A stretch of 64,000 nt of DNA from Candidatus Omnitrophota bacterium (GTDB lineage: Bacteria > Omnitrophota > Omnitrophia > Omnitrophales > Aquincolibacteriaceae), in contig JAUYMS010000030.1 of the NCBI GenBank assembly GCA_030698625.1, positions 20,016 through 84,015 on the forward strand, read 5' to 3'. The notes under the pieces are model-generated. The model searched no databases. It saw nothing but the letters and a program-made list of their open reading frames with translations, and was not told where the DNA came from. The translations under genes were made by a program, and so were the position numbers. Below, one piece after another: positions 15,001 through 62,249 of the stretch (its first letter is position 1; every line of letters begins with the position of its first letter).

Positions 15001-18000
15001 TATATTTTCTTCCGGTCCGAAGAACCCCTTGAGGGCGAGCGTGCACCGGACGGCCGGGACCTGATCCTGCCGCTTGCGGCATTCAGACAAACGGTGGGCG
15101 AGGAAGAGAAAATTACCGGCGGTGTCTTTATCATCGGAGACCGGTTCGGCTCAATTCCTCACGGTGATGCCATTGCCGTGCAACACCCGGATCACCCGCA
15201 TCTGATTTTTATTTTCAATAATCTCGGCAGAGAAGGGAACATTATCGACGAGTCTTACCGTCAGCCTCAGCCGGCAGCGATCCTTGATCTACTCGACCCG
15301 CAACCGGTCGAGGTCGAAGGGACCCGATACAGCGTGACTCCCGACGGCCGCATCCGGATCGGGAATGCCAATCTGGATAAAAGAGGCTCCGCATCAGTTT
15401 TTGGCCTGGTCGGGGGCTCACTCGTGTGGTCATCGAAGCCCGGGCAGAATGAGGCGACAGGGGCATCCGACGATATAGAAGTGCCTCTGGATCCGCAGAC
15501 GACAGCGCTTAGAGAATTGCTCGGAGGCGATCTGCTTCACAAGATATTGCGGCCGGATTACAAAGGAGCGGACATCCGCCAAGCCGTCAGGAAACTCAAA
15601 AAGGATAAATTCTGGTGGCCGTTCGACCAAAACGCTTCGCCGTATGCACGCCTTGTCACCGAACGCATTTATGCCGCGACGGTTCCCGCGCTCGCGGACC
15701 GCGTTCTGTCAGGTGATCTTGATAAAGAGACTTACAATGCGGAACTTGACAGGGATCTCGGCGGCAAAGACTTCTCCAGGCTTCGCAGGATGTCGATGCG
15801 GGACAATGACGGCAAGGCGCGGGAATTGAGCCGTCCGGATAAGGAATGGCTGATCGCAGATTTCTTTAGCAGACACGCTGATGCTTTGGACGAGGACCTC
15901 GGGCCCGAAGCCCTTGATCTCCGGATTAAAGAGACCGATAGCGAAACAGATTTCCTTATTGTGAGACGGTATAAGGTGCAGGGTGAAACGGAAGCCCTGG
16001 CGCGGCTCGGCACCGGGTTCGAATTCGGCAACTTGCAGGGCCGGTGGTATATAGAAGGCGGCGCCCTTCGGGGAGCCTTCAAGACAGGGAAGCACTTTGG
16101 TTCCATCGGTGACGGTGCGACAACCGTAACCCTAGAGCCCTCGGTCCTGGATACCGGCGGCGTCTACCTTGACAGTGCCCATCATGATGTCAGCCGGGGT
16201 TTTGTATTGCCCGTTGTCTTGAGGCGCGACATAAACAGGCCCACACTGGTGCACGCCTACATGCTGAGTCCGCAGGGAAGTTATGGCGGTATCAAGTCGG
16301 GTTGGGAATATTCGCTGGCGGATATCGATCTCACAAAAACGGGCTCGGAATACAGGGTCGAAGAAACTCGCATCACCGTTCTTGCCGGCGGGCGGCTCCA
16401 GATTTCACTCACCGAAAAGAGCAATCTCAGTCACGGTGTCTATGCCGCGGAATTTTCTCCGGTGCGTCGTGAATCAAACGCACCGGATTTGGCTGTCGTC
16501 CACGATATTATTGCCGCCTACGGGCTTCATCGCTACCTCGGATCCGATCAATTCGGTTCCTGGGCGCGGCCGCATATATTGCATGGCGGGCTTGATGCGA
16601 AACGTTGGCATGACAGTTTCAAGCCGCTGCTCGGGATCGTCAATAACGCCGAAGCCGACCCCGAAGCCCGCAGGCTGGCGCAAAGAGTCCTGGTGGCCCT
16701 CACGCCGCGCCTGCGTGATCGCATTTATCCCGATGGGGCTGCAGAACAGGCAGCGCTGAATGTTCCGGCGGCGACAGAGCTAACCAAGGACGATATCTTC
16801 AATTGGGCTCAGGGCAAAGCCGATCCTGCAGTTGGAGCGACCCTGGTCATGCCCGTTACTTATTATGACGAAAAGAAGGGCGGGGCCGACGTCATTCCGC
16901 GGGCCCGCGTCGAGGTAAAATCGGCCGGTACGGGCAAGAGTTTCGCCGTCCCCATCGACGATCTCAGATTGAAACGGAAAGAATTGAAGAATGCCACTTT
17001 AGCCGTGATCGAAGACGCGAACCTCGGCAAGGTGCTCGCCATTTTTGCGCCGGACGATTACGAGTCCTGGCGATTCGGAAATTACACGGTCACCCCTCTG
17101 GCAGTTTTTCCGGTGACGGCAAAACACAACGGTTTCCGGCAGCTGGCCGTACCTTTTCTCGTGGATATCGATAAGCTCAGCCGCGGGGAACTCGAGGAAG
17201 TGCGCGTGCCCGGTCATCCCTGGAGCTATATTAAGACTGCGGCCCGTGTGGAACCGCCTTCCGGCAAGATGGAGTCAACCACGGCGAGAATCATCTTGAA
17301 GTCGACCGCATTTGGGGTCCTTGTCCAGATGGGATTTACGCCGACCGCCGCGGACCTCGAAAAGATCGATCTCGAGAGCGGTGAGCGAAACATGGACGTT
17401 TATGTGGTGATCAGGCAGCATCCCAACCGCGGGCCCATGGTACAAGTCTTTCGTTTGAAGGATTATGATCCCGCGAAGCCCGCTGAATACGGCGAGCCGA
17501 TCGTGACCTATGCGTACGTCGACGAGAAATGGACTCAGATTATCCCCGCAGTGAATGACATCATTGATGCCGCCTATGGCCGTAAGGACTTGGTCGAAAC
17601 CGCGGATGCCTTCGAACAAAAGGTCGCGATCAATCAGGATGGTCGCAGGGCCTCGATTACCATCACGACCGGAACGCACGGTAAGAACAAAAAAGCATTC
17701 TCCTTTACCTTCTCAAAAGAGGAAATAGATGAATTTAAGCTGGCAGAGAATCCGGCAATCGTCCGCCTCAAGGTCGATCGCGATTACGGCCCCTATATCG
17801 CCGTCTCGGCCAGGGTGAACGGGGAAGAGCGTTTGATCGGTAATAGTGTCGAGGTCAAGAATGAGGCGCAGAAAACACGTCGCGTCGATTTTGACAAGGA
17901 GGCCTTCGCCGACTTCCTTAATAGTGCAAACAATATTCACGGTGAACCCATCGCGCCGCGAATTTATACCCATGCCCATGAATTAACGGAACAAAACAGG

Positions 18001-21000
18001 TACATGGTGGATGTCCTGAACCGCGCCCAGGTCCGCAGTCTGGACGAACATGGGATTAAGCGGCCGGTCTTTATTCCCAGGCCGGATGCGAAGTACGGAT
18101 GGGTCTTTGAGACGCATGATGTGGATACGTACAACAAAGACCCCGGCAAGAAACCGGAAGTCGTTTTAGCACGGCGGCCGGGCCATACAACATTGATGAA
18201 AGTTAACAGAGTGAGTGCTCCTGCTGAGCCCGAAGCGAAGCGGGATACAGAGGGCTCCATTCTCGATGAAGCCACGCTTCTTTCAGAGCTCATGAGCGAA
18301 TCCCACCTGCAGATGTTTCACGAGCAGGACGCCATGTATTGGAACCGGAATTATGGTGAAGCCGAAGACATCGCGCGCTGGGCAGAACGTGCCGGCGAAT
18401 GGAAAGACCGGTGGATTCACAGTGACCCGGTCCGCGAGGCGTCGCTGCAGGCCAGTATCTACGGCAAGCTCAAATTAAGTTCGGATAGCCAGAAACTTTT
18501 GATTCGGGATTTTCTTGATAAACACGGGGATCAATTTGCAATCCCGCTCGGTGCGCAGGACCTCTGGATCCGCATCTTTGCCTTCGACAAGCATTATCCC
18601 GATGGGGAGGTTCGTCAGGCCTCCCGTATTGCCGTGGCGCATAAGGACACCGGCCGAATCCTGGCGACGCTCGGGAATTTCCACGAACCCGGCGACCTGC
18701 AGGGGTATTGGCGGCTTGAGCCGTGGAGCAACCCGCCGGTGCCCGCGGAGCGATTTAAACAGCACGGCTTCAAGGAACGCGACTATGTGCGAGACGCCGA
18801 CGGCACAGTCAGAATGCCGCACATCAATGTCCCGGCCTTACTCGCGACAAGGGTTGCCAATGAACAGCCGGGCGTCACCAGCGGTTGGATGCTGACGCGG
18901 CGTCAGAGGGATTCAAAACACGTTCTCATCGCGAAGGGAAGGAGCCATGAGCCCGGCGAGATATTAGGTGTGCTCGATCTCACCCGGCCCGGTTCGTCGG
19001 TGACGCTGGATCATGCGACCTTTACCGTGGAGTCCAATGAAAAAGTCGCCGTCGTGCAGGCGCCTGATCCCGCCCTTGCTGCCATAGCCACGGTGCTCGG
19101 AAGTGTCAAGGTCAAGGGCTCGTCGACGCTTTCCGAAGGCTCTGCTACCGTGCGTTATGTCACGGACGAATACGGCGCCCGGCGGTTTCGACACGCATTC
19201 TATGACCAGCGCGGCAGCGCAACGGATCAAAGTGACTGGGACCGGATCCATGAACCCTTAGTCCGCGTTCTTGAGGATCCGGCTGCGTCCGAAACGGCCA
19301 AACGCGTTGTCCTGCGAATCTACCTTGCGCTTGTGCCGGATCTCCGGGAAATGATGGAGTCCGGAACGATCGATCGCGCGCGCTTGCGCGAGGAACTCCG
19401 CAATGAGCACAAGATCTGGGAGCATATCGAAGCGAAAATCGAACGCGGTCACGCCAAAGCCCGAGGGGAACATAATTATCCGAAGGATTTTGGGCCGGGA
19501 TTCAAAGCAAAACGAATCCCCGCAGGCGTTTCGATCCGGCGTCTGACGCCCGTTAAGTGGGCGGCGATGCTCGCGAACGAATATAAAATCGAAGAGCTTG
19601 AAACGGGCGACGAGGAGCTCCTCAAGAAAGATTTCCTGACTCGGCACGGCACGGATTTTGGAGATGTTCTCGACAGCGGCGATACCAAGATTCGCATGAG
19701 ATTTTCAGGGGTGGAAGTTGTGTTGGCAGAGGCAGAGGAGACCGTCATTGCAACATTGGGAGACGGCTATCATCCGAAGGAACTTCGGGGTACCTGGTCT
19801 ATTGACAATGAATTTAAGTTTGATGCCAGTCTGCATCAACTAAAGAAGATCCTCTATAAGGGGGCCATGGTGCGCATGGAAGACGAGATCTGGAATCGCG
19901 AGATTTTCGGCGAGATCGTTCGCGGGGATCTCTACGTCTTAGCCGGCAAGGCGAAATGGGAGACGGTGCATGAGCCCATGCTGGAAATACTCCGGGACGA
20001 AAAGGCATCGGCCGAAACCAGGCGTGTCATCAAATTGATTTATCTGGCGATCACACCTTCTCTTCACGCCGAGATCCTCGGCGGGGAACTGTGGAATCAT
20101 AAAGCGGCGATTCAAAATGAACTGGAGAAGGAAGTAGAACGGGCGGGGCAGGAGTATCGGGCAGCGAAGGCGGAGCAGGAGTTCCCCGACATGACCCTAA
20201 CGCGGCAGGCTTCGGCCTATGCCAGAGTCGGCCAGAATAGAATTTTTGTGGGCGCGGATGAAGAAGCGTTGATCGATGACTTCTGGCAGCAGCATAGCAG
20301 TGACCTCCCTCCCTGGTTTGAGAGGGAAAGGCTGAAGCTGATTGCGACACAAATCCATATAGATAAGATTCATGAGCTCATGCCTCATGGCGAGAGGCTT
20401 TATGTCACGATTGCTCATACCGCCGATGACGGTAAGCAGACAACCCTCGCACGGTTGGGCACGAGTTTTGCGCCCAATAATCTGGTGGGGCAGTGGAGCA
20501 TCTTGTGGGAAAACATTGTAATGCCGGCGCTCTCGCGCGAAGCTCTTAATTTTGAGGACTACAAACAACTCGGTATGGGCAGCGACCGCGCAGAGATTAT
20601 TGTTGATGCACAAACGCTGCTGCAAAGTGGTGGTTTGTTTATAGACCGGTCTTCTCAAAGCGAAAGATACCGCAATCTCGCCTTAATGCCTGGGCCTTCG
20701 AGTAAAAACGTACTGCTTGTTATCGCCGTTGACGATAAAGCGCCCGATGGAGATCAGCTGCCATTAGGCACGCTGCGTCTCGACCAGCCGGGCTTTAGCC
20801 GGGTCGAGAGGAATGAGACGCAGTTCGAAGTGCTCGAAAACGGTCAAGTCGTCGTCAGACCCGGGGTCTTTGATGGTTCCATCCCCGAGGGCTATATCCG
20901 GCACAATCCGGTCTATCAATTGGCCTCTAAAAAACGCTCCGAATTACGTTCGTCGATACAGGTCGGTAATCCCCTCTATCCCGGAAAACTCGAGATGTTC

Positions 21001-24000
21001 GGTGATGCGATTATGTTTCAATGGCCGGCCGAAGGCAGTGAAGACGACGCGCTTGTCCTGATGGGAGGGAAACATAGGGAGGATCAACTGATTTTGAACG
21101 GCGTGCTGATACGGCCCGGGACGAAGATCCAGGAAATGCAGGGGACTATGGCTCTTGAGCATGTCATGGGTGGTCTCGTGAAAGTAACCCGCGAGCACTA
21201 TGCGGCCAGCGAATACCCGCTCGAATTGCACAATGTTCAGAATCCTTATATTCTGGCAGTTGCCAACCAGCTGTTCGAACCAGGCACGCTCGAGATTGTA
21301 CCAGAGATGATGAGTGCCGAGGAAGTTCTTGAAAACGAAGGCCGCCCGGCGCGCTGGCGCCCGCTGGATGACATCGATTTTTACAGCGAGTTCGGACCGG
21401 TTACGGTTTATACTGACGATTTTTTGAATGCCAAAGAATTAGCGGAATTCCAGCTAACGAAAAAAGACGGCCGCTACGAAGTGACGGGGCCGGCGCCGGA
21501 GGGGATGCGCGTTCATGTCAGCGGGAACATCCTGCGCGTCACGGATCCGGCGACCAACCGCAAGATTCGCGTGCTTGCGCTTGAACGTCCGTTCAAGCTT
21601 CGTGGTAAATTGCGCGAAAGTTTCGGTCTCGCTCGCTCAGAATTAAGGGCGGATAACAACGGTCGAGTCGTTATGACAACTTCGCTTGAAGGCTTTGAGC
21701 CGGATGAAACAGCGCTCGGCGCCGAGGCAAGAGCTCACCTCAAGAGTTTTCGTAAGAGCGACGCCGTCGGCCGCGGCGATATGGCGCGGCTCTTTTTCGA
21801 CTTCCTGCTGCAGGATGAGATCGACGTTGAACTTCTCGACATCGGTTATGAAAGAGCACTAAAGCGCTATATGAAGGACAGGATTACTCCTCAGATTCGA
21901 AACGGACTCTTGATAAAAGTGCCTATCGCGGGTTTTATGGGAGATGAAGCCAGAAATCTACTGACGGCGTTGCTCATGGGCCGTGTGAGTGCGCGCGAAG
22001 TGCTCACGATCGCTATCCTTGAAGGTGTGCGTATCCCCGATGTCTTTCCCGACACCGAGGCGTTTACGGCTGAGCAGAAAGAGAAACAGCGGGACAGGGC
22101 ACAGAATTTCAGCGAGCGGTATTCGGCCCTGCTCAGCGGCAAAGAGGAGATTAGCATTTCAGTAAAGCTTCCGCCCGAAGATGAAGTGGACTCGCTTTTC
22201 GGGGAAATAAGCCGCCTCGGACGAGACCTATCTGAGATCCATATTTTTGCCGACCGTGACCTCGGAGACTTGAGGGAGTTCTGGCGGGCTTCCCGCAAAG
22301 GAACCCCGAAACCCCGTCCGTCTTATCTGACCCCGGTCGAGGCCGCCCTCATAGTTAGAATGCCGCAGCGGACTTTTGAGTCTTATCTTTATCACCTGGA
22401 ATCGCAGCAAATCGAATCGATGGACAGTTTTATTCAGAAGCACCTGGTTGCGACGGGTCATATTAAATTGTCCGATATCGAAGCGAAGCTTGATACCGCG
22501 CCGAAAGACTTGACCGAAATCATAGAGGATGCACGCAGAGGCGATGTGTTCGCTTTCTTTGACCTGATTCAGCGGCTTCACGTTCAGGTCATTGCTTTCA
22601 AGAAAATCAAGACAGGGGTGGATGTCGCGGAAAAGCAGAAGCGTGCGCTTCCGTCCCTCGCAAGGATTCTAGATAAACATATTACCGCCTTCGAGGGCTA
22701 TGATGAAAAATTCCGTGCCGGCTTCGGCCGGCTCGTCGGGTATCTCGACGAGTTGCTGGCCTTGCCGGCGCTCAAGCGGGCTGTCCTTGAGGATGCGTTT
22801 TATCGGGCGCGCATGATCGAGCTCATCGAGACATTGTTCCGCAATGATGATCTGGCCACGGCACAAGACCGTGCCCGGCTCCTGCAAGCCTTGGCGCATC
22901 TCACCACGGCCGAAGATAATACGCATATCTTCATTATGGAAGAGATGGAGCTTGAGATGCTGGGCGAAGGCCGCGAGATCGAAGGAGCGATAGACGCCTA
23001 TATCACTGCTCTTCGAGAACTCAGTGCCCGCGATCCAAAGATCTTGAGATTTCTGAAACTACGCATTCAATATCTTTCAATGAAGGAGCACAAACAGGAC
23101 GCCGGAAATGAGGATGCGGCGATTGCAGCACGGCGCCGTCGTGTTGCGAAGACGCAGCTGGATGCGTACCAAACCGTTCTCGGACGCATTGACGAGAGTT
23201 TGCTTCGCGCCGTGACACGTGACCCCGTCAAGGAGAACGCACTTGACGAGTTCCTTGCGCTGGGAGAAGGGTCCTGGAAAAAGAAAGCGACCCTTTTAGC
23301 GGAGATTCAAAAAGACCCTGAGCTGAAAAGGAGCTCAAGGGTGATTGATGAGGCGTTTGTGGGTAGGATACGCCAACAAATCGAAAAGCTCTATGCCGCC
23401 GAAGACATCAGCCAGGATCAGCGCGACGAAAAACTCCATGCCGCGGAGGCTTATCGCCGGGCATTAAAGCTCGCTGAGCCGCAGGGTGCATCTGCGGTTG
23501 CCTCAAGTGCGGTGTATTTTACGCAGGCTGAAGCAGCTGCTCACTTGGTTCTTGAGATTGAAAACGAAGTGAGGCACCTCTTTGATGAAGACCCCAACCG
23601 CAACCCGATAGAAATTTATCAGGCGGCCCGCGACGTCTATGCTGACTCAAAGGCGTTTCTCGGGAGTGAACAACGAATCTATTTCGAGACGGCCCTTGTC
23701 ATTCTGCTCAGAGAGCTCTATACGATTCAACGTCTGCGGTGGCGGACTTATGAACTTGGGCTCCTCAAGGATCTTAAAGACCTCGGTTTTTCTTCGACGT
23801 CCGGGGTCACCAATGAAGATCCCAAACAAGCCGAATTCATGCGAAATCTTCTCGGGTTCCTCCCGGGGCAGTATCAGGTCATGTTTTACCCGGGTTCGGT
23901 TGAAGTCACCATGGACGAAAGTTCCTTTAAACGCGCATGGAAACTGACGGGCAACGGTTTCGGGCGCGAAGTCGAGAACCTGAGCCAGGTTGAAATTGCT

Positions 24001-27000
24001 GTCTATAACGGAGAGGGGGCGGCCGGGTTCTATAGTGAGGGGTTTCCGCTTCGGCTCGGAGACGTGGCCTATCAGGGGATTACCAGTTTTGGGACCAACA
24101 GTTCGCTTGGAACCGGCGACTGGGTGGCGCGCCATGAACAGGGGCATTCGCTTTTCCGAAATTACCGTATCTATGATTCGTTCCTTGACCAAAGCGATTC
24201 GGGCGCAGCCTTGCTCGCTCCGTGGGTGGATAAGTGGGAGAAGGAATTTCTTGAGGGCGGCGTTCAAGACCCCGATCTTCGTGAGAAGTTAGTGCGCCTC
24301 TACGGGGACCATTTTCGCTGGTTCCAGGAGGAAATGATGATGAAGTACCTGCAGGCCGAAGACGGCCACATCATTAAACCGCAGGGGAATATCAAAAGTT
24401 GGTTCCTGAGCTATATTAATATGGAAGGATACGGAAGCGCGCGTGCCCGTTACCTCAACCGCGTGAGGGATCCGGATCTGGTGGAGAAATTTCACAATGA
24501 GATGCGGGAATTTACCAATGACAAAGAGCCGCGTATCGGCCGCATGCTGGAGCAAAGTGCGGCTGAGTATCTCGACATATACGAGGCATGGAAAGACGAA
24601 CTCCGGCCGGAAGGCTTTAGCGAACGGGATGTTATGCGCCTCGTCGGCTACTTCGGAGCGTTTCTCGGCCCGATCTTCAAGCTCCGGCGGCTCCGCAAGG
24701 CAACCGAGTGGGCCGTCGATCCGGCGCGTCGCGTTGAAGGTTCTCAGCGGTCGGAATTGCGGATGGACGGGGAAGAGGAACTGATTGAGGCGCGCGAAGC
24801 CTGGAAGAAAGCCCATGAGGCTTTAGAGGCGGCCGGTTCAACCGCCACGCTTGAACTTGGGAATTTTGCGCATATGGAAGGCTATGAGGGCTATCTGGGG
24901 GCGATGCCTAATGTGCCTGCGGAGCTTTTCGACGACATGTATCGCGGTGCTACGCTGGCCACCTTTGAGTTGAATCAGCACTCCTTTTTAAATTACCTCA
25001 CACATGTGCGCGAGGGGTATATGGGTCCGGCGCAGGGGGAGTCGACCTTCTACAAGAAGGCAATCGCATCCGTTATTCGCACCGGTGTGAAATACGGGGC
25101 AGGGGTCGATGCCGACGGGAAGCTGAATAACCCCATGTTGCGGATTATGGACGACAGCAGACCGAGCGATGTCATACAGGTCCCGTGGGGAGGACGAACG
25201 CTGCATGTGCGCGATATCGGCGGAGAACTTAAAGAGGCGGCTCCGATTACCGAACAGGAAATTCTTGCGGGCCTGGAACGCATGGACGGCATCTATCATT
25301 GGAATTTGCGCGTCAATCGACTCATCTCGTTTGACGCGCCGGGAAATACTTTCGGCCGCGCCCTTTCGGTTTACGAACCGCCCCACGAATCGATTCGCGC
25401 AGTGATTGCCGGCATTCAAAAGCAGTTTGGCGACCGGCTGCGTTCCCTGGGGCTCAGTGATGACGATATGCACTCCTTTATTGCCAACGACTACATCATT
25501 CCGTTGTTTGTAAGTATGCGTGATGTGCGTCAGCTAAAACACATTGCCGGAGAGATCCTCGAATTGATAGAGCATTCGCAGGACAAAGTGCCGGCCGAGA
25601 TGCGTATTGTCCATCTCGGCGGTATGGCGCATTATGCCTCGCTTAAGTCTCTGATCAAAGTTTTGGAGTTTGCCGGCCGAGGCACTCCGGTAACGGTGGG
25701 TAAAGCCTGGAATGATCCGCGTTATGAGGCGCATCGCCATGAAAAAGATGATACCTTGCGCGAGCGGCTCGTCACACGGCATATCAGGGAGATCTTTAAC
25801 CACGTGCACTTGGAAGACGGCGACGTGCGAATGGATGTGGACTTCTTTGTGGAGCGATTTGGGCGATTTCTGGACTCCGGCGGGTCTGCCTATGCTCAGC
25901 CATTTATGACGAGGCAGGCGCTTCTCCTTCGGCAAAAAGGTGAGCTTGAGGCCGCTGAGATGACGTTGATGCGGGCCCTTAAAATTGACCCGCGTGATCC
26001 CGGCGTGTTGATCAATCTTGGTATGGTCTATGCCGAGATGGGGCGGTCGGCAGAAGCCGCCGAAGCCTATGCAAAAGCTCTTTCGCTGGATCCGTATCTG
26101 GCTTCGGGGCATTTTAATCTTGGAAATCTCTATGCGCGGAGCGGAGACATGGCTGCCGCAATAAGCGCCTATCGCAAAGCGGTTCAGGTGCAGCCCTATT
26201 ATCTTCCGGCATGGCAGAATCTGGCTAATACCCTGGTTGCGGTCAACGACTATCCTGAAGCGATTAAGGCTTATGCTCAAGCCGTGCATCTGGCCCCGAA
26301 TGATCCGGAGTTGCTTTATAATCTGGGCATACTCAGCATCATGACAGGCCGAGTCAATGCCGCGCTGGAAATCAAAGACAGGCTCCAAACCTCTGAGCCG
26401 GAGCGCGCGGCCCAGCTTGAGCTCTATGCGCGGTCTGTCTTGCGAAGTACTGCACTCGCCGGAAAGCTCTTGGAGAAACGCGATGTTGTAAATCTGGAGC
26501 TCGGGAAATTGCGTTACGGTCAAGACGGTCGTCTGGCTGAGGGGCAAGAAGCGGACATAGGTAATTTGATCCGCGAAGGTAAGTATCTCCTCGTGCAATT
26601 TGGCGGGTATGGCAGCGATGCGCAGGCTTGGGCACGCGCAAAGCACGACCTGAAGAGTTTTGCCTATGCGCTGACCCTGGCCTTGAAAGATGAAGGAGAT
26701 CAGGCTGCCGCCGATGTGATCCGCGAAATCCTCTATAACGGTTTTGTTCACGGCAATAAACTTGCCGAGCGGCTGCCGATGTTCTTGCATCTCGAGTTGG
26801 ACGCTGAGCGCCATGATACCGTTCAAAAGATTGAAGTTGTCGATGCGGCTTCCCTCAAGCCGTTAACGACCGAGCAGATCAAGACCGGTAAAGACGAGGC
26901 CAAACTCTGGGGGGCCGAAGACGGTATCCCGGGGATCACGGCCCGGGGCTGGTCTTACGAGCGCGAGGCGATTCGCCACGAGAGTTTGGATGATGCGATC

Positions 27001-27627
27001 GGCACTCGCGTCGTCTCAGAGCGCGGCTCACCGGAACGGTCCGAACTGCGGACGGCACCGGGCCTTCATGCCGGTGAAGCGCTTTCTGCGGTTTCGCACA
27101 AGAGAATCTTTGTTGATTTCGCGGACCTTGCGGCAAATTTTTCGGATGAGCAGATCAAAGAAATCATCTATGTGGCCGAGAGAACCGGTGAGGATGTCGG
27201 CGTCGTTGTCTACAACCTTGATCCTCTGGAGGCGAACGGCCTCGGCAAGTTTTTCGAGAGCGTGAACCTGAAGAACCTCGTGATTGAATCGGCGGGGCTG
27301 GAAGAGGCCTACCGGAACAATACCCGCGAATTCCAGGGAGAGATCATTCACCTCTCAAGCCAGGCCTCTGAGATCAAAGCTGAGACGGTCCGGCAAATAG
27401 TGCAGGGTCAATACGAGGTGTTTGCCATGGCGCATACCGGCAACGCAAGCGGGGCCCTCGGGCTGGGGCTTATCGAATTGCGGGACGGCGATCTGAGCCA
27501 TACGCTTCCCGATTATCTCGACTACGACCCTCGCGGCCGCATCTTCGTTTCCGACCCCGAATATTCCGCCTATACCGATCTCCAGGAACTCTACGACACC
27601 ACCGTCGCCTTCGCCCGCGCCGCGTAA
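16..27627 (+). CDS. Giant multidomain protein (9,203 aa) with ATP-grasp, PIMT-like methyltransferase, SNF2 helicase, internal repeat modules, an HExxH motif region and TPR repeats. Possibly 5'-partial, because the frame is open from nt 1.
   Basis: Single uninterrupted 27.6 kb ORF in the provided track. Enzyme motifs recognised by eye are listed in the sub-features below. The five codons upstream of the first ATG contain no stop, so the true start may lie outside the window. Confidence 0.85.
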   Translation: MMRQGKLVRVSFTDPVVIHEFVDYTDSAIQVNRNFQERVRKLGISMPSHPETDEYIYRKDVATMILSGLKGVNIPETTLVMADPDERLAERIRKTRAADPANLEIIEVSPRDWSIHEKVRRILDDFLKPPGREEAVLKPHHGSGGVDVMIFGRENLELAINHALRLLRSGKNLILQERIRSPLIRHEGVLKDWTLRDFIALTPEEGRTVVSDVLIRYDRAGRPVNITQFADVMTREDLVLSEMDGDFEWNRERLETLNHDLRETGEHIYAPIARLMREDGVLGEDEYPTEFMSADLMYDGGKLYVIELNNDKTGGMGWLNDHLRRRAEAGDKDAEARIGASVRDWTNYMVHRAGVYKSTILGMEAQTVSAAEIYAALPREHRDYLDIIELLAEVSDFLYLPVKPKLSAVREWDEKRLNQMKQALSRLIDGNFRKDNLREMPAKSQARLLDLTARLGIKLDPAAVRSALAPSHESAAGWRDDNTVELKRRRELFEEIEGALLRSPYAEKLAETLPGRNIEKTTEQILDAFLRTPRHLFVPDRLRERAYEDKAFHVGLGQSISQPSLMAFVLAVLDIDENKKVLEVGAGTGWFAAWMGRLAKEVYAVERIEALTELARQNIGNLGIENVSVITGDGHKGLPEEAPFDAIVVSASTPKVPDNLLRQLSAAGGRIVIPLEKGNGQQELTLITRYADEYTYTPLREVRYVPLLDGNRDDSTRSELRVTVDHMAAKLQREISSRGGRNIRVEISPSLGEWLRRDAVFPAGLFNGYASFIEALNFSPDNKVRIIFASWSDEHFNVRIDGTWRSIEEMRAFVTDKNIVVLNLREAMADPDGLRDDAYHELAHVKTFERIYDVVQTDATYYVLETLADALPYEALLSKNKTAARKHFNRVILPQMRGYTAKELRGEMADLATGRYRHAEKLIKFLFFTKRYGKEKDYEAFFERLRQHYPKRGVVTRLKTGAGKMVDEMNKALDDLAQFEKTEKTMVYDAIGASRKTAEAFLKAVSGRGRSELRESTHEDAWLTHPAETDWTKRTPSQIGLLVRLMLQRAEISIDRLMQLPAEEAERVFRATPIEPLSNGEPYTLEPLYRAYDNLREAEGSTLSTLQFLFYRNRIPFKGQESAARRHILDEHISGNERQWFSTIAQELDFEAWMHLFDTDQGQAALFLLLAKRYPDFPKTALLALISEKFMDYEERNGIEPFTREVLMGERTEKALAAYWSGNITTRLEQQEIEDLRDTIARQIIIRIHNSIWDKAHKVKRARGKSAAHKAVEIGRQWFSARLNDREHPVPRDVRTIFTRIRKHYDKLSQVNYQRHVKFQNGNGMSQLMLHQVEGIYFARHQNDGRVILGDEMGVGKTVQSLIAAEDAGAESVLIVAPTRLLANWEKEIRDWLGKDQKIAVIRGSGKAKLRQIEEAKEAGARFILINYEAMANVKESRNGDAVVDALNDWDFDFLIADEVHWVKNPSAERTKGFRKLNKKKAKAMYLSGTSVVNGVGDLFTALNAVDPERFPTFKKFVGEFTEDGRRARGTVSDPLKFAQLNVELNQKYFLRRTLEQVMGHLPKKHDLEEIHIGLDPEQIEVMEDVEEHNDLLRKGELEIDDDEELPENGKRGPSRGFGPYEIQKQVLIDLELLNGMDYKHSDPPKYRAALQKVREVIAKGDRIYITSRYRKVIYRLREFLADAIGADAISYIVSSEHDGVEQDAIVREFNENQKKKVFLSTYGIGGEGLTLKANHVLFVDLPYTPAKMNQVIGRVYRYGQEKEVYVYALVVPDTVDEDILDILSRKESLFDQIIRGKLNVEDTRKMLKHLEEQEDRRSGRKSQAQKARARIADIYNLLNEGENELAQREWDDFMELYEEAIEDVAATAATQALYSYMLQEHDGNRIDLGYKSDDYENPRWGFLASGPSVDLRVLRQMQEHFSERGVAVEGIDYYELDSSAKARALGHAWQVTKSFPNRPSSQLTYDLYNDNLPQNQFDFVSSSEIARPRPRIKNKKGISMKLWALSQMVQSATAGGLVLIWDHHGAFSKKAMDFLSNEETFDLEIINTEGSAIKIPGLDEATRNMVDGVTFILARKRSHKTFSVEDLKRIQKKWPDGLHIDRDQQLGSRIAKRRPLKMTDEAPDDKPRRGVLDVITPGAPAGLISLVQRVIKNKKRTGADQNMEERLIEVFEILRSGSRKPEDVRKLHEHLRKILERGLEPDGIRILLSRVKRYKRYQNRKDLNAVIAMLEGTLAKADDETEPREKGEKETGGKGAGASKRGRRPGNELPKIIINDGDVLQALSLQGIIFRKSSKSIRTGVHVEGATVWVDPYLIASRVLSPEERQYILQLLVYMHLELVHPDNPAAALLVGLRHFRELLDKDEVHAALQKMEPDKTNIFYFFFDSHDLPTWQEVEQIIAVDPSSVPPYRVQDILGRFTQFLLKHRSSEHLPPELPDEGAIPALLVKAGEIDGKHGKKIAAARKTQPKKMRSKHRQEESLRIVERVLAAHQITITDWNDDAAADVIRERMLTGPVNHDSLWRYFHEPLLRVNQDWRASEEAKERVQTVYRALLPMQFRAVLKAGSYRWDESREKLNEAWMNERDYLTLGEEMKQQNGDYVEDAFWKRREQDLGIKNGMNERRWAMSARAGIRKGFSEETNTEIIRGFRAYLTNPLSLFEENEVIAPYAEISVKVADIPGAKGSRVSIAFEDREVAYLGTGYSEDNLIGRWYVVQKFPSSEVEYQDKDLRAIDDILLELKYHFEKIDTLTRSQHREFVPHYSSPFFADSARLMSQLDSNELGLNRDRFGGDAMKIVNILIPILKGTGTSDEAKTAARRFLTAVAPSMADEIAEGSIDKTLLSRAILTERKIQVDYEDKYREGGFSDEEQQLETDKVRHASIMARHVAKLALTEQSQQALIADFVEKHAGDFPEGLKAEDLRIDIVWNQTLRDEGIQERAAVFASHSNVRIIRDDEVLAVLGLNFMPGDMQGRWHLSQKLYKNGKFEFPRGKFIRTGQMDAAEREAGIDLGLLRHQGVVIGRPNYKSLVLVENPAKEGQVFVLRMTTPGSLFGTAADREPVTKIDIAQDAVYRMPDSGVVLHVKDGLITVKAEVKPGAWESYHWIYHAVFDADEWPQMDFPEFSGGDFIVDDEVRDVALQKVERWSQDTTYAAITAADVADGPLFFRPSAEAAYGLAAVRNPWLDDSILIFQTDIDGRMIAPSPKPILGVDLDANETWRSPIRGVGRDGKTLYFWLHPQTGSIYWAHFEINNGASSAEPPSDGDEIVHPAYPFKEGHLEQAANARAGIIQIQDKGGRSGVRDVYEISRDVLAHDGVIVTYYSTMNRYAGVSHLHVIQSRENPNLVYIYGLDENFRYVPRDERDHLHVLDLRNPDSRTTDADRRGNITFKVINAGNALKIIRSHSDMEGQRARGEEVYAAKFVPDDEGDDDWKTIQSILNAAAVINGNAQFPHYDSPVFGEFVRKILHELSPEELGSRDGSTHRRFHERGKNLIEPLLVMAESTTAPARVRDTAKKMLIAFAPEMRRQILAGNIDRQQLMRELIGEKTEYVGLERNLQAEGSTREKQALENMRLPNARFASILARYNSALKLDAKARDLLLDDFMEKHGQGLDRETLRVEVAQEQEIEDYTSGGGFLDHVSDLVSRIRIIDGEEPLAELGVMYSEDDMQGEWRLLKDAGRESVPTGSYLFPEGEFKKNKLMPKNATEINPEDWNDGAIVFQQLGSAYAPSPIALVPSFVDPNKILVLPVTSHFRTFKETALREPLGVLDLSNPSEDYLKVSFWPDRQDLQGRETLLRVIDGGKVEVVQLNGEAVPTMSRAAFGADDWTQVPMAEVVGGTFKRGPKLQSKDPRKFAYLARKKFENGRSLMIREPEDTYLVAGQNPWDAKSVIVFRTDAEGHMLDEMDGRPILAFSTIKAGVHQVGDIHFQFDDFVVDGLMAMRKGEGEDEETAAYEATFVPGPEPYPFLGGNFAPKAGQELEGIEITGGGITEEYEISGEVLGGDGAVVTYYSSHSSYRGVSHLHFIRSRKNPDWVYAYGLDGNFRYSQWRNTPLIAINLNKRISSYARGEHMGNIEVKPNSSADGIVVHRRNQMNVETAKDENGEVQILDVSFDRRRAEVVFAAEFHPDGAESEGRLNTFKARFMADEGWFAYPYVHGRLKKTSVDAQDGIQFSRRNGSSTSKISREALAGKGVLIAQYKYTKAESEELVYYHLMLDPENSKRLYIYELDGDGRAVPADPEPLAILNLSDSQFEWSNKHSNLSVGANYGEPGFLLSVNHNKGPFGEVYRAEFIADPPAERSVSETYPAYPFAEGAFRTLATGEGMTRGHSDVFQTAEIDRSVLAAEGVVATHYVPYGPHRGVSHLHIFQDRSNPDLIYVYGLDEKFHYGQWRSGPLAVLNLADPALNVGEGVRRGNVWVQKSADKNKVLITHKNPRYPRRPDRDEGIYRVQYVSREQAKYPYAGGRLVRPAGNEATAGITFGLKAAKGSAAYELSPESLSGTGVLVAEYVRSPSWSQEIFHHHLFLDPLDPRKLLLYRLDEEGRATGEHQTPVTVLDLDEEFRWSTGTFILMNDKNGKGLSLTRRKGPFDKVHRARFVPDGGEAVPDKALERSNLVRNGVFKRLTQLRRFKFGEFTDHAASSKFRWTASVGRPQLDAGQALLVLESKLGSERTSLVAVRHSSRVGVVQIYRLGNDDRIVDARAQLVTELNAEESESLGLFTFTVKSNGAVEVSKADGRVVAYSAEFIPGESAASGDDRLLEEALTYVGGHYPDYDYLFGVFSYDDLEWPSAFKPFFEILKNPDASAQAKEFVRRIFLARAPSLYEAIVSGEILGMDEDELLKIFKQEEALWDFQQKFDGKGGEIHTAYYAIEEAQKEKGLEGVEISAVRMAGLLADSEPLVPRGPSAGFSTATQAALKNDFFDRYGALFDGLERKDLYIDYEFDVPAYENLKIARIIMRRGIDGPELAHLGTGRTFDNVQGVWHLNHELVKASVPGEYIFFRSEEPLEGERAPDGRDLILPLAAFRQTVGEEEKITGGVFIIGDRFGSIPHGDAIAVQHPDHPHLIFIFNNLGREGNIIDESYRQPQPAAILDLLDPQPVEVEGTRYSVTPDGRIRIGNANLDKRGSASVFGLVGGSLVWSSKPGQNEATGASDDIEVPLDPQTTALRELLGGDLLHKILRPDYKGADIRQAVRKLKKDKFWWPFDQNASPYARLVTERIYAATVPALADRVLSGDLDKETYNAELDRDLGGKDFSRLRRMSMRDNDGKARELSRPDKEWLIADFFSRHADALDEDLGPEALDLRIKETDSETDFLIVRRYKVQGETEALARLGTGFEFGNLQGRWYIEGGALRGAFKTGKHFGSIGDGATTVTLEPSVLDTGGVYLDSAHHDVSRGFVLPVVLRRDINRPTLVHAYMLSPQGSYGGIKSGWEYSLADIDLTKTGSEYRVEETRITVLAGGRLQISLTEKSNLSHGVYAAEFSPVRRESNAPDLAVVHDIIAAYGLHRYLGSDQFGSWARPHILHGGLDAKRWHDSFKPLLGIVNNAEADPEARRLAQRVLVALTPRLRDRIYPDGAAEQAALNVPAATELTKDDIFNWAQGKADPAVGATLVMPVTYYDEKKGGADVIPRARVEVKSAGTGKSFAVPIDDLRLKRKELKNATLAVIEDANLGKVLAIFAPDDYESWRFGNYTVTPLAVFPVTAKHNGFRQLAVPFLVDIDKLSRGELEEVRVPGHPWSYIKTAARVEPPSGKMESTTARIILKSTAFGVLVQMGFTPTAADLEKIDLESGERNMDVYVVIRQHPNRGPMVQVFRLKDYDPAKPAEYGEPIVTYAYVDEKWTQIIPAVNDIIDAAYGRKDLVETADAFEQKVAINQDGRRASITITTGTHGKNKKAFSFTFSKEEIDEFKLAENPAIVRLKVDRDYGPYIAVSARVNGEERLIGNSVEVKNEAQKTRRVDFDKEAFADFLNSANNIHGEPIAPRIYTHAHELTEQNRYMVDVLNRAQVRSLDEHGIKRPVFIPRPDAKYGWVFETHDVDTYNKDPGKKPEVVLARRPGHTTLMKVNRVSAPAEPEAKRDTEGSILDEATLLSELMSESHLQMFHEQDAMYWNRNYGEAEDIARWAERAGEWKDRWIHSDPVREASLQASIYGKLKLSSDSQKLLIRDFLDKHGDQFAIPLGAQDLWIRIFAFDKHYPDGEVRQASRIAVAHKDTGRILATLGNFHEPGDLQGYWRLEPWSNPPVPAERFKQHGFKERDYVRDADGTVRMPHINVPALLATRVANEQPGVTSGWMLTRRQRDSKHVLIAKGRSHEPGEILGVLDLTRPGSSVTLDHATFTVESNEKVAVVQAPDPALAAIATVLGSVKVKGSSTLSEGSATVRYVTDEYGARRFRHAFYDQRGSATDQSDWDRIHEPLVRVLEDPAASETAKRVVLRIYLALVPDLREMMESGTIDRARLREELRNEHKIWEHIEAKIERGHAKARGEHNYPKDFGPGFKAKRIPAGVSIRRLTPVKWAAMLANEYKIEELETGDEELLKKDFLTRHGTDFGDVLDSGDTKIRMRFSGVEVVLAEAEETVIATLGDGYHPKELRGTWSIDNEFKFDASLHQLKKILYKGAMVRMEDEIWNREIFGEIVRGDLYVLAGKAKWETVHEPMLEILRDEKASAETRRVIKLIYLAITPSLHAEILGGELWNHKAAIQNELEKEVERAGQEYRAAKAEQEFPDMTLTRQASAYARVGQNRIFVGADEEALIDDFWQQHSSDLPPWFERERLKLIATQIHIDKIHELMPHGERLYVTIAHTADDGKQTTLARLGTSFAPNNLVGQWSILWENIVMPALSREALNFEDYKQLGMGSDRAEIIVDAQTLLQSGGLFIDRSSQSERYRNLALMPGPSSKNVLLVIAVDDKAPDGDQLPLGTLRLDQPGFSRVERNETQFEVLENGQVVVRPGVFDGSIPEGYIRHNPVYQLASKKRSELRSSIQVGNPLYPGKLEMFGDAIMFQWPAEGSEDDALVLMGGKHREDQLILNGVLIRPGTKIQEMQGTMALEHVMGGLVKVTREHYAASEYPLELHNVQNPYILAVANQLFEPGTLEIVPEMMSAEEVLENEGRPARWRPLDDIDFYSEFGPVTVYTDDFLNAKELAEFQLTKKDGRYEVTGPAPEGMRVHVSGNILRVTDPATNRKIRVLALERPFKLRGKLRESFGLARSELRADNNGRVVMTTSLEGFEPDETALGAEARAHLKSFRKSDAVGRGDMARLFFDFLLQDEIDVELLDIGYERALKRYMKDRITPQIRNGLLIKVPIAGFMGDEARNLLTALLMGRVSAREVLTIAILEGVRIPDVFPDTEAFTAEQKEKQRDRAQNFSERYSALLSGKEEISISVKLPPEDEVDSLFGEISRLGRDLSEIHIFADRDLGDLREFWRASRKGTPKPRPSYLTPVEAALIVRMPQRTFESYLYHLESQQIESMDSFIQKHLVATGHIKLSDIEAKLDTAPKDLTEIIEDARRGDVFAFFDLIQRLHVQVIAFKKIKTGVDVAEKQKRALPSLARILDKHITAFEGYDEKFRAGFGRLVGYLDELLALPALKRAVLEDAFYRARMIELIETLFRNDDLATAQDRARLLQALAHLTTAEDNTHIFIMEEMELEMLGEGREIEGAIDAYITALRELSARDPKILRFLKLRIQYLSMKEHKQDAGNEDAAIAARRRRVAKTQLDAYQTVLGRIDESLLRAVTRDPVKENALDEFLALGEGSWKKKATLLAEIQKDPELKRSSRVIDEAFVGRIRQQIEKLYAAEDISQDQRDEKLHAAEAYRRALKLAEPQGASAVASSAVYFTQAEAAAHLVLEIENEVRHLFDEDPNRNPIEIYQAARDVYADSKAFLGSEQRIYFETALVILLRELYTIQRLRWRTYELGLLKDLKDLGFSSTSGVTNEDPKQAEFMRNLLGFLPGQYQVMFYPGSVEVTMDESSFKRAWKLTGNGFGREVENLSQVEIAVYNGEGAAGFYSEGFPLRLGDVAYQGITSFGTNSSLGTGDWVARHEQGHSLFRNYRIYDSFLDQSDSGAALLAPWVDKWEKEFLEGGVQDPDLREKLVRLYGDHFRWFQEEMMMKYLQAEDGHIIKPQGNIKSWFLSYINMEGYGSARARYLNRVRDPDLVEKFHNEMREFTNDKEPRIGRMLEQSAAEYLDIYEAWKDELRPEGFSERDVMRLVGYFGAFLGPIFKLRRLRKATEWAVDPARRVEGSQRSELRMDGEEELIEAREAWKKAHEALEAAGSTATLELGNFAHMEGYEGYLGAMPNVPAELFDDMYRGATLATFELNQHSFLNYLTHVREGYMGPAQGESTFYKKAIASVIRTGVKYGAGVDADGKLNNPMLRIMDDSRPSDVIQVPWGGRTLHVRDIGGELKEAAPITEQEILAGLERMDGIYHWNLRVNRLISFDAPGNTFGRALSVYEPPHESIRAVIAGIQKQFGDRLRSLGLSDDDMHSFIANDYIIPLFVSMRDVRQLKHIAGEILELIEHSQDKVPAEMRIVHLGGMAHYASLKSLIKVLEFAGRGTPVTVGKAWNDPRYEAHRHEKDDTLRERLVTRHIREIFNHVHLEDGDVRMDVDFFVERFGRFLDSGGSAYAQPFMTRQALLLRQKGELEAAEMTLMRALKIDPRDPGVLINLGMVYAEMGRSAEAAEAYAKALSLDPYLASGHFNLGNLYARSGDMAAAISAYRKAVQVQPYYLPAWQNLANTLVAVNDYPEAIKAYAQAVHLAPNDPELLYNLGILSIMTGRVNAALEIKDRLQTSEPERAAQLELYARSVLRSTALAGKLLEKRDVVNLELGKLRYGQDGRLAEGQEADIGNLIREGKYLLVQFGGYGSDAQAWARAKHDLKSFAYALTLALKDEGDQAAADVIREILYNGFVHGNKLAERLPMFLHLELDAERHDTVQKIEVVDAASLKPLTTEQIKTGKDEAKLWGAEDGIPGITARGWSYEREAIRHESLDDAIGTRVVSERGSPERSELRTAPGLHAGEALSAVSHKRIFVDFADLAANFSDEQIKEIIYVAERTGEDVGVVVYNLDPLEANGLGKFFESVNLKNLVIESAGLEEAYRNNTREFQGEIIHLSSQASEIKAETVRQIVQGQYEVFAMAHTGNASGALGLGLIELRDGDLSHTLPDYLDYDPRGRIFVSDPEYSAYTDLQELYDTTVAFARAA
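170..990 (+). other. Domain of giant protein: ATP-grasp-like ligase fold
   Basis: The motif VLKPHHGSGGVDV resembles the ATP-grasp phosphate-binding loop seen in RimK and glutathione synthetase type enzymes (VLKPxxGxxGxGV). A downstream LYVIELNNDKTGGMGW segment resembles the C-terminal ATP-grasp metal-binding region. Confidence 0.55.
1560..2150 (+). other. Domain of giant protein: protein-L-isoaspartate(D-aspartate) O-methyltransferase (PIMT/Pcm)-like SAM-dependent methyltransferase
   Basis: PRHLFVP...AYEDKAFHVGLGQSISQPSLMA matches the PIMT signature (RxxFVP...AYxDxxLPIGxGQTISQPxxVA). The SAM motif I is VLEVGAGTGW, and post-I acidic motif VYAVERIE follows; post-II motif FDAIVVSAS follows. Confidence 0.75.
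3990..5400 (+). other. Domain of giant protein: SNF2/SWI2-family helicase ATPase (N-terminal DEXH lobe plus helicase C lobe)
   Basis: Motif I is GDEMGVGKTVQSL. Motif II is DEVHWVKN (the SNF2-type DExH followed by KN). Motif III is LSGTSVVNGVGDLFTALNAV. The helicase-C motif VI is QVIGRVYRYGQEKEVYVYALV. Order and spacing are typical of SNF2. Confidence 0.85.
7500..21000 (+). other. Internal repeat region of giant protein with at least three diverged repeated module types
   Basis: Eight copies of ...L(A/I)xLGxGxxxxxNLQGxWxL... occur near nt 8101, 8881, 10981, 14910, 16000, 18661, 19741 and 20440. Each is preceded by an (L)IxDFxxKHGxxF...DLRI segment and by an HEPL..DxxAxAxxxRVxxxIYLAxxPxL helix-like segment. 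Three copies of VVTYYSxxxxYxGVSHLHxIxSRxNPxxVYxYGLDxxFRY occur near nt 9961, 12030 and 13045. There are recurrent (V)YxAEFxPD motifs and GxNPWxxxSxIxFxTD motifs. Confidence 0.7.
23800..24500 (+). other. Region of giant protein with an HExxH motif (possible zincin-like metallopeptidase)
   Basis: WVARHEQGHSLF is encoded at nt 24124..24153. Acidic residues occur downstream (WEKEFLEGG). Only the short motif is visible, so catalytic status is uncertain. Confidence 0.3.
25890..26390 (+). other. TPR repeat block of giant protein
   Basis: Consecutive 34-residue repeats carry the W-LG-Y-A-F-A-P pattern: ...ALKIDPRDPGVLINLGMVYAEMGRSAEAAEAYAKALSLDPYLASGHFNLGNLYARSGDMAAAISAYRKAVQVQPYYLPAWQNLANTLVAVNDYPEAIKAYAQAVHLAPNDPELLYNLGIL. 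Confidence 0.8.
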
Positions 27628-27642
27628 ACGAAGAGGACGCGC

Positions 27643-27788
27643 GAGGTGAAAACGAGTCTGCCCGAAACGCTCCGGATTTCTTGGCCTATCCTGCCCATCA
27701 AAGTCTTGTCGAAAACCGGCGACTTTGATACTCGCTGATACGGCCCAAGAAATCCTCCGCATGTTTCTGGCAGCCTCTTTCTCACCTC
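27643..27788 (+). repeat. MITE-like palindromic repeat element, copy A (~146 bp), with 14 bp terminal inverted repeats gaggtgaaaacgag / ctctttctcacctc
   Basis: It lies in the intergenic gap just 3' of the giant gene. It is about 90% identical to the reverse complement of 61993..62138. It has extensive internal complementarity (ggatttcttggcc / ggcccaagaaatcc and atcaaagtc / gactttgat), which predicts a long hairpin. Confidence 0.75.
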
Positions 27789-27979
27789 GAACACAAGCTG
27801 GTGACCAGACACCCAAAAGAGAGCCAGGTTAACTCACGTTAGCCTGTCCTTTTTTGTTTCTACCTCAGTGAGTGTAGGGTCGTTATGGTGGGAGCCCGAA
27901 GTATGCATCCTCTATGGCAATGCGCTGTCCTCCCGAATATAATAAAGCCCACGTGACCACCCCGCGGGAGGTCTTAGTT

Positions 27980-56070: not shown

Positions 56071-56832
56071 TTAGAACTCTCCCGGTTCCGGAGTCGGCGT
56101 CGGAGTCGGCGTCGGAACGGGCGTCGGTGCCGGTGTCGGAGTCGGTGTCGGAATAGGCGTCGGCACCGGCGTCGGAGTTGGTGTCGGAACGGGCGTCGGC
56201 GTCGGTGTGGGGGTCGGTTTGGGTGTGGGGGTCGGTTTGGGCGTCGGTCTCGGAACGGGTGTCGGAGTCGGCGTTGGTCTTGGAGTCGGTTCCGGAGTCG
56301 GCGTCGGCTGCGGAGTCGGCGTTGGTTCCGGAGTCGGTGTCGGTTCCGGAGTCGGCGAAGGCGTCGGTGTGGGCCTCGGCGTGGGCGTTGGTGAAGGCGG
56401 TAGCTGTGTATTGTCCGCCGGACCGATGTTGGCCGCAAAGACGGAAGCTGTTGCGCGAATGCGCAAACTACTCAAACCTGGGATAAACCCCCCGAGCGGA
56501 GAATTGAATAGAGCCGATGAGGTAACTTCAACCGGATCGGTTTCGAGATTCCCTGGGACATTGACGGAGACGATCGGACTGACGATGTTATCATAGTTTG
56601 CGAGGATATTATTGGCGACGGTTCTTCCGCGGAAGCCTATCTGATCATCCTCGGCCATGGATGCCTGGCGCGCGGCCACCTGACTGGCCCGGTACAATGT
56701 GTGCCAAGTAATTAAGGCGCGTGAAATCTCTACGATGCCTAATACCAGGAGGAGAAAGATGGGAAGGACGAGAGCCGCTTCGACAATGCTCTGTCCGCGC
56801 ATTCCTTTGCGTTGACGATACCGTAGAAACAT
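56071..56832 (-). CDS. TadE-like protein with a C-terminal Pro/Thr-rich low-complexity tail
   Basis: The N-terminus is [28 protein letters not shown] (TadE). The C-terminal roughly 110 aa are (P-T-P-x)n. Confidence 0.65.
56080..56400 (-). repeat. Hexanucleotide-period tandem repeat (ggcgtc / ggagtc / ggtgtc units) encoding the PT-rich tail
   Basis: Clear 6-nt periodicity over about 320 nt. It is a candidate slipped-strand variable region. Confidence 0.7.
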
Positions 56833-61768: not shown

Positions 61769-61992
61769 AAACAAGCCCGCCCCCATACGCTAAGGAAGGG
61801 CGGCCAGGAAACACTCCTCCAAAACGCGCTGCTACGCTCGGAGTTAATTTTTGGGACTGTCGCCCCAAAAATTTATCACCTCGTCTCCGCAAGAAGCGCT
61901 AATTGTTTTTCCGGAGTATTCCCTGCCCACTCTTCCTTGTCCTCGCTTAACGAACCACAATTCAACTTGCTCCAAGCGCACCCACAACCCGA

Positions 61993-62138: not shown

Positions 62139-62249
62139 GCAGCGCCTACTGGAGGAGTGTTTCCTGGCCGTCCGTCGAGAAGCGTTTCAGGCAGACTTGT
62201 TTTTAGGGCGGGCGTCTTCAACGGGCGTAGCCAGGATTGCTACAGAAAA

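Follow-up and report, generated by a model that had tools for sequence, protein, structure and literature searches.

A palindromic intergenic repeat, probably of the MITE or REPIN kind, behind a giant gene of an Omnitrophota genome

Introduction

What is the long palindrome that lies immediately behind the stop codon of a gene coding for 9203 amino acids, and why does it come back, inverted, some 34 kb further downstream? The question arises in the window considered here, i.e. the whole 64 kb stretch of Candidatus Omnitrophota DNA under analysis. Several roles compete for an object of this kind: a terminator or some other structure of the 3' end of the messenger, a small RNA, a substrate for recombination, an accident of assembly or a small mobile unit without a gene of its own. 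An initial annotation had entertained most of these, while describing a MITE-like repeat family with two members, which we call here copies A and B. The features on which the discussion rests are collected in Table 1.

Table 1. Features of the window discussed in the text; positions are counted from its first nucleotide.
Feature	Positions	Strand	Basis	Remarks
9203-aa ORF (giant gene)	16..27627	+	ORF/Pfam	3' untranslated region would contain A
Copy A	27641..27788	+	repeat search, fold, nhmmer, covariance model	148-nt palindromic repeat, reference orientation
Terminator-like hairpin	27825..27855	+	-12.1 kcal/mol, z -3.5	canonical intrinsic-terminator-like: 9 bp, loop 4, then TCCTTTTTTG
212-aa orphan gene, MDP3920267.1 (Q8R76_05625)	61130..61768	+		converging on the B/C composite
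Left arm of outer hairpin C	61762..61832	+		outer ~30 nt (GAGCTGAAAACAAGCCCGCC...) resemble the A/B terminus
Segment between left arm of C and B	61833..61992	.		160 bp; forms a weak palindrome with the left arm of C
Copy B	61993..62140	-	repeat search, fold, nhmmer, covariance model	reverse complement of A, 89% identity
Right arm of outer hairpin C	62139..62209	-		directly adjoins B; outer end 62180-62206 resembles the A/B terminus
131-aa gene, MDP3920268.1 (Q8R76_05630)	62250..62645	-		converging from the opposite side

Two copies of one imperfect palindrome

The two copies align without a gap in an inverted-repeat search, 132 of their 148 positions being complementary (89%), and blastn finds the same relationship with an E-value of about 1e-45. 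The initial annotation, which read B as the reverse complement of A at some 90% identity, is thereby borne out, and its coordinates were correct to within 2 nt, the length of the unit being now set at 148 nt. The copies differ at 16 positions, their longest identical run is 25 nt and they have no 31-mer in common. In a four-way alignment (both copies, both strands), similarity is lost right outside GCGAGGTG...CACCTC, and the boundaries of similarity are the exact ends of the palindrome; the terminus itself reads GAGGTGAAAACGAG. Searches of the window with nhmmer and a covariance model, with filters off, return A and B as the only significant full-length matches. The two sites are unrelated to each other, and both are intergenic and placed at gene 3' ends, A starting 14 nt past the TAA stop (27625-27627) of the giant gene, directly after it as had been claimed.

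Folding both copies had been proposed as a check, and each does form a long hairpin, at about -70 to -82 kcal/mol with z about -8. The RNA of A reaches -72.6 kcal/mol (z -7.5) and that of B -81.7 kcal/mol (z -8.2), with 0 of 200 shuffled sequences as stable in either case; folded as DNA, the element reaches -38.2 kcal/mol (z -6.5). The palindrome is less regular than had been announced. Terminal inverted repeats of 14-15 bp had been described and they are real, but they are imperfect, extending over 26-27 nt at 85-88% (27642-27668 and 27763-27789 in A, 85% alike; 61993-62018 and 62113-62138 in B, 88% alike), with 12 of 14 positions agreeing over the 14-mer first reported. A near-perfect internal complementarity was likewise overstated, since the arms within one copy are about 70-72% alike, with indels. 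The consensus structure of A and B holds 54 pairs together with several bulges and internal loops, and bulges such as AT and GAG, which have no counterpart on the opposite arm, are found in both copies. This common asymmetry gives the element a polarity, in which A on the plus strand corresponds to B on the minus strand, and it shows that the element was copied whole, its precursor being an imperfect palindrome already.

Does the palindrome belong to the RNA or to the DNA? Hairpins of about equal stability are formed by either strand (A+ -68.9, A- -75.2, B- -75.2 and B+ -81.8 kcal/mol), and the 16 differences between the copies include a single compensatory pair, an outcome to which a rough hand estimate gives a chance probability of ~20% and which is no evidence for selection on structure. 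Equal folding of the strands and a lone compensatory pair point to a DNA-level palindrome, not to a strand-specific RNA gene. Nor is the element coding, because the open frames that run through it are not conserved between A and B (about 10 of 49 residues differ). The initial annotation had also mentioned a small RNA, which would have its own gene or be processed from the hairpin as a precursor. We give this idea hardly any credence. A long structured non-coding unit would suit it, and the only match of Rfam 15 at E<=1 over the whole window is a plant miRNA precursor, MIR918, but the gathering score there is 268 and the match reaches 20.6 bits, as a long hairpin of any kind might; there are 0 matches at the gathering threshold, no promoter-like site was found in or before either copy, the unit has no terminator of its own and neither strand is preferred.

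Near the apex, cATCAAagtcTTG (27696-27708, with its equivalent in B on the minus strand) lies one mismatch away from the IHF consensus, WATCAANNNNTTR; by a hand estimate, some 10% of such elements would be expected to show such a site by chance. Correia elements and BIMEs carry IHF sites.

The 3' end of the giant gene

A stable hairpin located downstream of genes invites another reading, that of a Rho-independent terminator, possibly bidirectional, or of a terminator-mimicking repeat of the SPRITE type, and the ends of the element, which read GAAAAC...GTTTTC, do have a weak A-tract/T-tract symmetry. Yet the T-run is just 4 nt long, lies within the stem and is degraded in A (CTCTTTCTC), and no T-run comes after the stem of either copy, the sequences found there being GAACACAAG, GCAGCGCC and TCGGGTTG. 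A scan for terminators reports none at A or B. The usual stem of a terminator is much shorter than ~55 pairs, and that of the element, about 5x too long, falls far outside this geometry. A canonical hairpin with its T-run (27825-27855) lies 37 nt downstream of A and is probably the real terminator of the giant gene. Because A sits between the stop codon and this separate terminator, it is not itself the terminator, contrary to what had been suggested, and a terminator role for the repeat seems to us very unlikely. Without A, about 50 nt would separate the stop from the terminator, a short gap that makes A look like an insertion into a normal 3' region. From its place between the two, A should be transcribed with the giant gene.

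The giant gene deserves a few words of its own. Its 9203-aa product has recognisable domains in a small part of its length, namely a PCMT-type methyltransferase (aa 521-710), an SNF2 helicase with Helicase_C (aa 1331-1760) and a TPR block near aa 8640-8810, while a search of 5.8 billion proteins found nothing homologous to its C-terminal 423 aa. The pentapeptide RSELR occurs six times, at aa 718, 1011, 6975, 7208, 8246 and 9009, where composition would predict 0.31 occurrences of SELR. The first of these directly follows the methyltransferase domain, and the motif could mark domain boundaries, or sites of proteolytic processing, in a polyprotein-like giant. Further along, 1.6 kb downstream of A, a pair resembling a BrnT toxin and a CopG-BrnA antitoxin is encoded on the minus strand (29367-29919), with Pfam matches to BrnT and to the BrnA-like partner that are around or below the curated cut-offs.

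Copy B within a second hairpin

Copy B lies between two convergent genes with adjacent locus tags (MDP3920267.1 and MDP3920268.1), on a 217,145-bp contig of the Candidatus Omnitrophota MAG. It is not alone there. On either side of it, 61765-61832 and 62139-62206 are inverted repeats of each other (77% over 69 nt, E 6e-10), and in the MFE fold of 61750-62230 (-220.8 kcal/mol, z -10.2) these arms pair, enclosing B. It follows that B and the 160 bp next to it occupy the centre of a second hairpin element, C. The interior of the C arms (GGCGGCCAGGAAACACTCCTCC...) is unrelated to A and B and still self-complementary; what C and A/B have in common is limited to ends of ~30 nt. The likeness of these ends was seen by local alignment (61760-61796 and 62181-62219) and by nhmmer, which places them at mirror positions with E 0.014-0.24, 62180-62205 being found at E 0.014-0.019. 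A 3-mismatch pattern search further returned a fifth terminus site, GAGCTGAAAACAAGCCCGCC at 61762-61781, with 2 mismatches, where 0.06 matches were expected. Within the same region, local alignment finds 61792-61938 to be self-complementary (64% over 158 nt, E 1e-8), and the corresponding weak palindrome of 147-155 nt at 61787-61941 matches the covariance model at 12.7 bits, a score that is not significant alone (E 0.94 window-wide); it is possibly a decayed further unit ('D').

The composite of B and C fills almost the whole 481-nt gap between the convergent genes and even intrudes into one of them, as the TGA stop (61766-61768) and the last codons of the 212-aa gene lie inside the left terminus of C. 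The 3' end of this gene seems to have been provided, or replaced, by the repeat; the gene product matches only itself in 5.8 billion proteins. B on the minus strand stands to the 131-aa gene in the same relative orientation as A on the plus strand to the giant gene.

Could the host have kept these structures for its own benefit? As 3'-UTR elements they might protect or process the upstream mRNA, notably the 27.6-kb transcript of the giant gene, or insulate convergent genes from each other, and the copies would then be functional rather than selfish. Both stand directly downstream of stop codons, in what is expected to be transcribed 3' UTR, and effects on mRNA have precedents in ERIC and Correia elements (PMC3184786, PMC2649163). 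The high stability of the RNA hairpins speaks in favour of this view, but the folding is without strand preference and the one compensatory change is at about the level of chance. The same polarity of A(+) and B(-) with respect to the giant gene and the 131-aa gene would also agree with a host function, although in two cases it amounts to a coin flip, and B equally follows the 212-aa gene, with respect to which it is turned the other way. At B, no independent terminator was found between the convergent genes and the composite takes up most of the space; against this, a copy of the repeat nested within C looks like a history of insertions, not like design. On balance we regard selection by the host as an unlikely explanation, if one to be kept in mind.

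A second assembly and the interval between the copies

Logan contigs of run SRR13727534, the work of an independent assembler, match the window at 100% identity. Three of the four Logan contig ends that fall in 27.6-62.1 kb are inside elements, at 27679 (in A), 61830 (the inner end of the left arm of C) and 62079 (in B), and no Logan contig spans a whole copy. These breaks hint at further copies or at polymorphism in the population; they could alternatively come from a loss of coverage at strong hairpins. The fourth break, at 39472-39500, is inside a VWA-domain gene; this segment contains GAAAACAACGAGACC, which is loosely like the terminus of the element, probably by coincidence.

The lack of a Logan contig across a complete copy, together with the failure to retrieve further copies from the databases searched, could be taken to mean that the repeat is an artefact of assembly (a foldback chimera) or a one-off segmental duplication without a family. 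We attach next to no weight to this possibility. The contigs of the second assembler do agree at 100% identity with 62 nt of B and with a stretch of A that takes in its apex and the inner arms on both sides, 110 nt out of 148, and the copies are internal to the 217-kb contig. A and B differ at 16 positions and are therefore not a mis-join of the same reads; moreover, their boundaries are those of the palindrome and a third related unit is present.

The initial annotation had further remarked that the pair might mediate inversion of the intervening 34 kb (27.8-62.0 kb). Copies that are inverted, 148 nt long and 89% identical make this possible in principle only. For efficient recombination RecA usually requires a run of at least 25 nt, if not a longer one, and 25 nt is the longest stretch of unbroken identity between the copies. 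GC skew is positive throughout the window, without change of sign at 27.7 or 62.0 kb, even under minus-strand genes; no site-specific recombinase gene is adjacent, and the interval carries ordinary chromosomal genes. Inversion thus strikes us as most improbable. The genes in question code for the BrnT/BrnA pair, nucleases, MsrB, a ROK kinase, ExbBD, TPR and VWA proteins, DsbD, Maf, a glutaredoxin and a Tad pilus locus. A composite transposon or genomic island bounded by A and B was also considered and rejected, as both the genes and the composition of the interval are ordinary chromosomal.

The search for relatives and for mobility genes

A degenerate pattern of 19 bases, AGAAATCCN{5,7}GTTTCNGGCNNNCTC, which matches all four arms in the window, was scanned through 185,579 GTDB species genomes, JGI metagenome contigs and IMG/VR viral contigs. 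It matched 21 stretches in the species genomes, 42 in the metagenomes and 0 in the viral contigs, and all 63 are chance matches of ~30 nt to a single arm, with neither extension nor inverted partner when followed by blastn and nhmmer. Plasmid and phage collections gave no match to the element by blastn. A six-frame peptide search of concatenated element frames against 5.8 billion proteins, meant to catch spurious ORF calls on other copies, returned none; its sensitivity is low where no ORF covers the greater part of a copy. Among the contigs that the pattern scan brought in, 11 from soil metagenomes or Verrucomicrobia have identical nhmmer scores for a match of ~37 nt without hairpin partner; presumably they share one sequence, which may belong to a conserved gene and has no relation to the element.

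The neighbourhood is equally isolated. The MsrB of the window is alone in its 90% cluster, and the ORFs 27914/27980-28552 and 28834-29295 have no record in an exact look-up. The host is a singleton Omnitrophota MAG without close relatives in the protein collections. In two papers on giant genes of Omnitrophota, a term search brought up no such repeats.

Signs of the enzyme that would move the repeat were sought as well. Among the ORFs of the 64 kb window, Pfam reveals no transposase, integrase, Y1 gene or reverse transcriptase, and the 8.6 kb past its right end contain no mobile-element genes. No tRNA or tmRNA was found. A scan that allowed boundary shifts of +/-6 nt detected no target-site duplication of at least 3 bp at A, B or C, no shared flank of more than 3 nt and nothing consistent among the three. 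Some specialised candidates were discarded as well: a diversity-generating retroelement, as the differences are not adenine-specific, there is no reverse transcriptase and A is outside the ORF; and an integron attC site, a CRISPR or a tRNA/tmRNA, as there is no integrase, array or tRNA.

Comparison with known palindromic repeats

Bacterial MITEs are usually below 200 bp, and up to ~400 bp, in length; they have TIRs, a hairpin and a target-site duplication, and no transposase gene, and they occur as multiple dispersed copies whose ends match those of a cognate autonomous IS or transposase (PMC3184786). In some of them the whole length is a hairpin, as in ERIC (~127 bp, Enterobacteria), Correia/CREE (~104-157 bp, Neisseria), RUP and Nezha (PMC3184786, PMC2649163), and a location at gene 3' ends with co-transcription has been described (PMC3184786). 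The present element resembles them in its size class of 148 nt, its TIRs, its lack of coding capacity, the hairpin formed by the whole unit and its intergenic position behind genes, with whose 3' ends it would be co-transcribed; one unit extends into a gene and appears to supply its stop codon. Nested or clustered copies are a further likeness, B lying here in C. Unlike MITEs, it has no TA or other target-site duplication and no promoter-like ends, its copy number is apparently low (two close copies and one related nested unit in 64 kb), neither the window's ORFs nor the next 8.6 kb include a cognate IS or transposase, and it is found in Omnitrophota. From ERIC, Correia, RUP and Nezha it is set apart by the absence of any extended match in 185,579 genomes that include the host clades of these families, an indirect comparison made by way of those genomes.

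REPINs provide a second model. They are REP doublets that form hairpins and are mobilised by RAYT tyrosine transposases (PMC3116915, PMC3337134), with conserved ends, a spacer that keeps the hairpin and no target duplication (PMC3116915); the REP ends are palindromes of 20-40 nt with a GTAG or CGTC tag (PMC3733652), and the genome contains a RAYT (Y1 transposase) gene that the repeat flanks. Here too we find two conserved inverted ends, a variable spacer that keeps its pairing (A/B compared with C), no duplication, an extragenic location and higher-order or nested clusters. The termini, GAGGTGAAAACGAGNCNGCC, are in contrast not self-complementary and have no consistent GTAG or CGTC, no RAYT gene is present in the 64 kb and 8.6 kb examined, and REPINs occur in tens to hundreds of copies, where 2-3 units are seen here. 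With IS200/IS605 elements, and with the palindrome-targeting IS110/IS1111 elements, the repeat has in common the lack of a target-site duplication, a possible one-sided flank specificity (CGC(T)GC|GAG) and, in the case of B, insertion into the middle of another palindrome. It differs in that theirs are subterminal hairpins, whereas it is palindromic over its whole length and bears TIRs; no such transposase was found in the window. One account places IS110 transposases near giant genes in other Omnitrophota, which is a lead only (10.64898/2026.06.07.730766). In sum, the element is built like MITEs and REPINs as regards size, TIRs, hairpin, absence of an ORF, 3' extragenic site and conserved ends around a variable interior, but in what would prove membership it has neither the target-site duplication of the former nor the GTAG/CGTC-tagged REP ends of the latter, and no cognate transposase is seen in the 64 kb and 8.6 kb examined.

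A small unit, probably moved in trans

We consider that A and B are members of a lineage-specific, low-copy, non-autonomous and non-coding palindromic intergenic repeat of the MITE, REPIN, ERIC or Correia kind, and put the probability of this reading at about 0.6. The family has no sequence relatives in any database searched; the type of repeat has long been known in bacteria. A MITE-like non-autonomous element, as first proposed, remains the option that fits best, with its sharp ends, its TIRs, its two unrelated sites and the nested unit C, while a target-site duplication and a transposase in the window are both missing from the picture. We would thus be dealing with a small non-autonomous mobile DNA unit, or with the relic of one, moved by an enzyme that acts in trans from a gene located elsewhere. 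Common ends of ~30 nt around an unrelated and yet complementary interior are the pattern expected if one enzyme recognises the ends; the interior would then need self-complementarity and nothing else.

How might such an enzyme work? In the orientation of A, the left flank reads CGC(T)GC|GAG at A, B and C. This common flank and the lack of a target-site duplication would favour a mechanism like those of REPIN/RAYT, IS200/IS605 or IS110 over DDE cut-and-paste. The flank is a lead, not a result, as three sites in GC-rich sequence may agree by chance.

For the messengers the consequences would follow from position, which makes a 3' hairpin in the transcript plausible. A would be co-transcribed with the giant gene, and B/C transcribed from either convergent gene, so that insertion would have placed an interrupted double-stranded RNA stem of ~55 bp in the 3' UTR of a 27.6-kb mRNA. 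Such a stem might incidentally alter the decay of the mRNA, by blocking an exonuclease or as a target of RNase III, an effect documented for ERIC and Correia elements (PMC3184786, PMC2649163).

Beyond this conventional account, a bolder one can be sketched, which we think improbable. The repeat would represent a new REPIN-like system, made of hairpin units that leave no target-site duplication, are recognised by their ends of ~30 nt and insert next to CGC(T)GC or into the apices of other hairpins, driven by an enzyme of a single-strand or site-specific type not yet linked to such repeats in Omnitrophota; or else it would be a domesticated 3' cap, whose double-stranded RNA controls the fate of very long mRNAs, e.g. 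the 27.6-kb transcript of the giant gene.

The significance of the repeat beyond annotation is little. It shows that palindromic repeats of the MITE/REPIN type are present in an Omnitrophota genome, and it explains to the annotator at which two loci short-read assemblies of this organism are interrupted, namely 27.64-27.79 kb and 61.76-62.21 kb. A warning is attached to it as well, in that the sequence which follows the giant gene looks like an inserted repeat and is not its terminator. Should many copies exist in the full genome, the family could help to tell strains apart and might lead to the enzyme behind its movement.

The window harbours a repeat of an altogether different sort at 56047-56433, a tandem array with a period of 12/18 nt within the gene at 56071..56832 (minus strand). 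It encodes ~115 residues of (P-T-P-x), with which a TadE-like protein, encoded in the Tad pilus locus, ends at its C-terminus.
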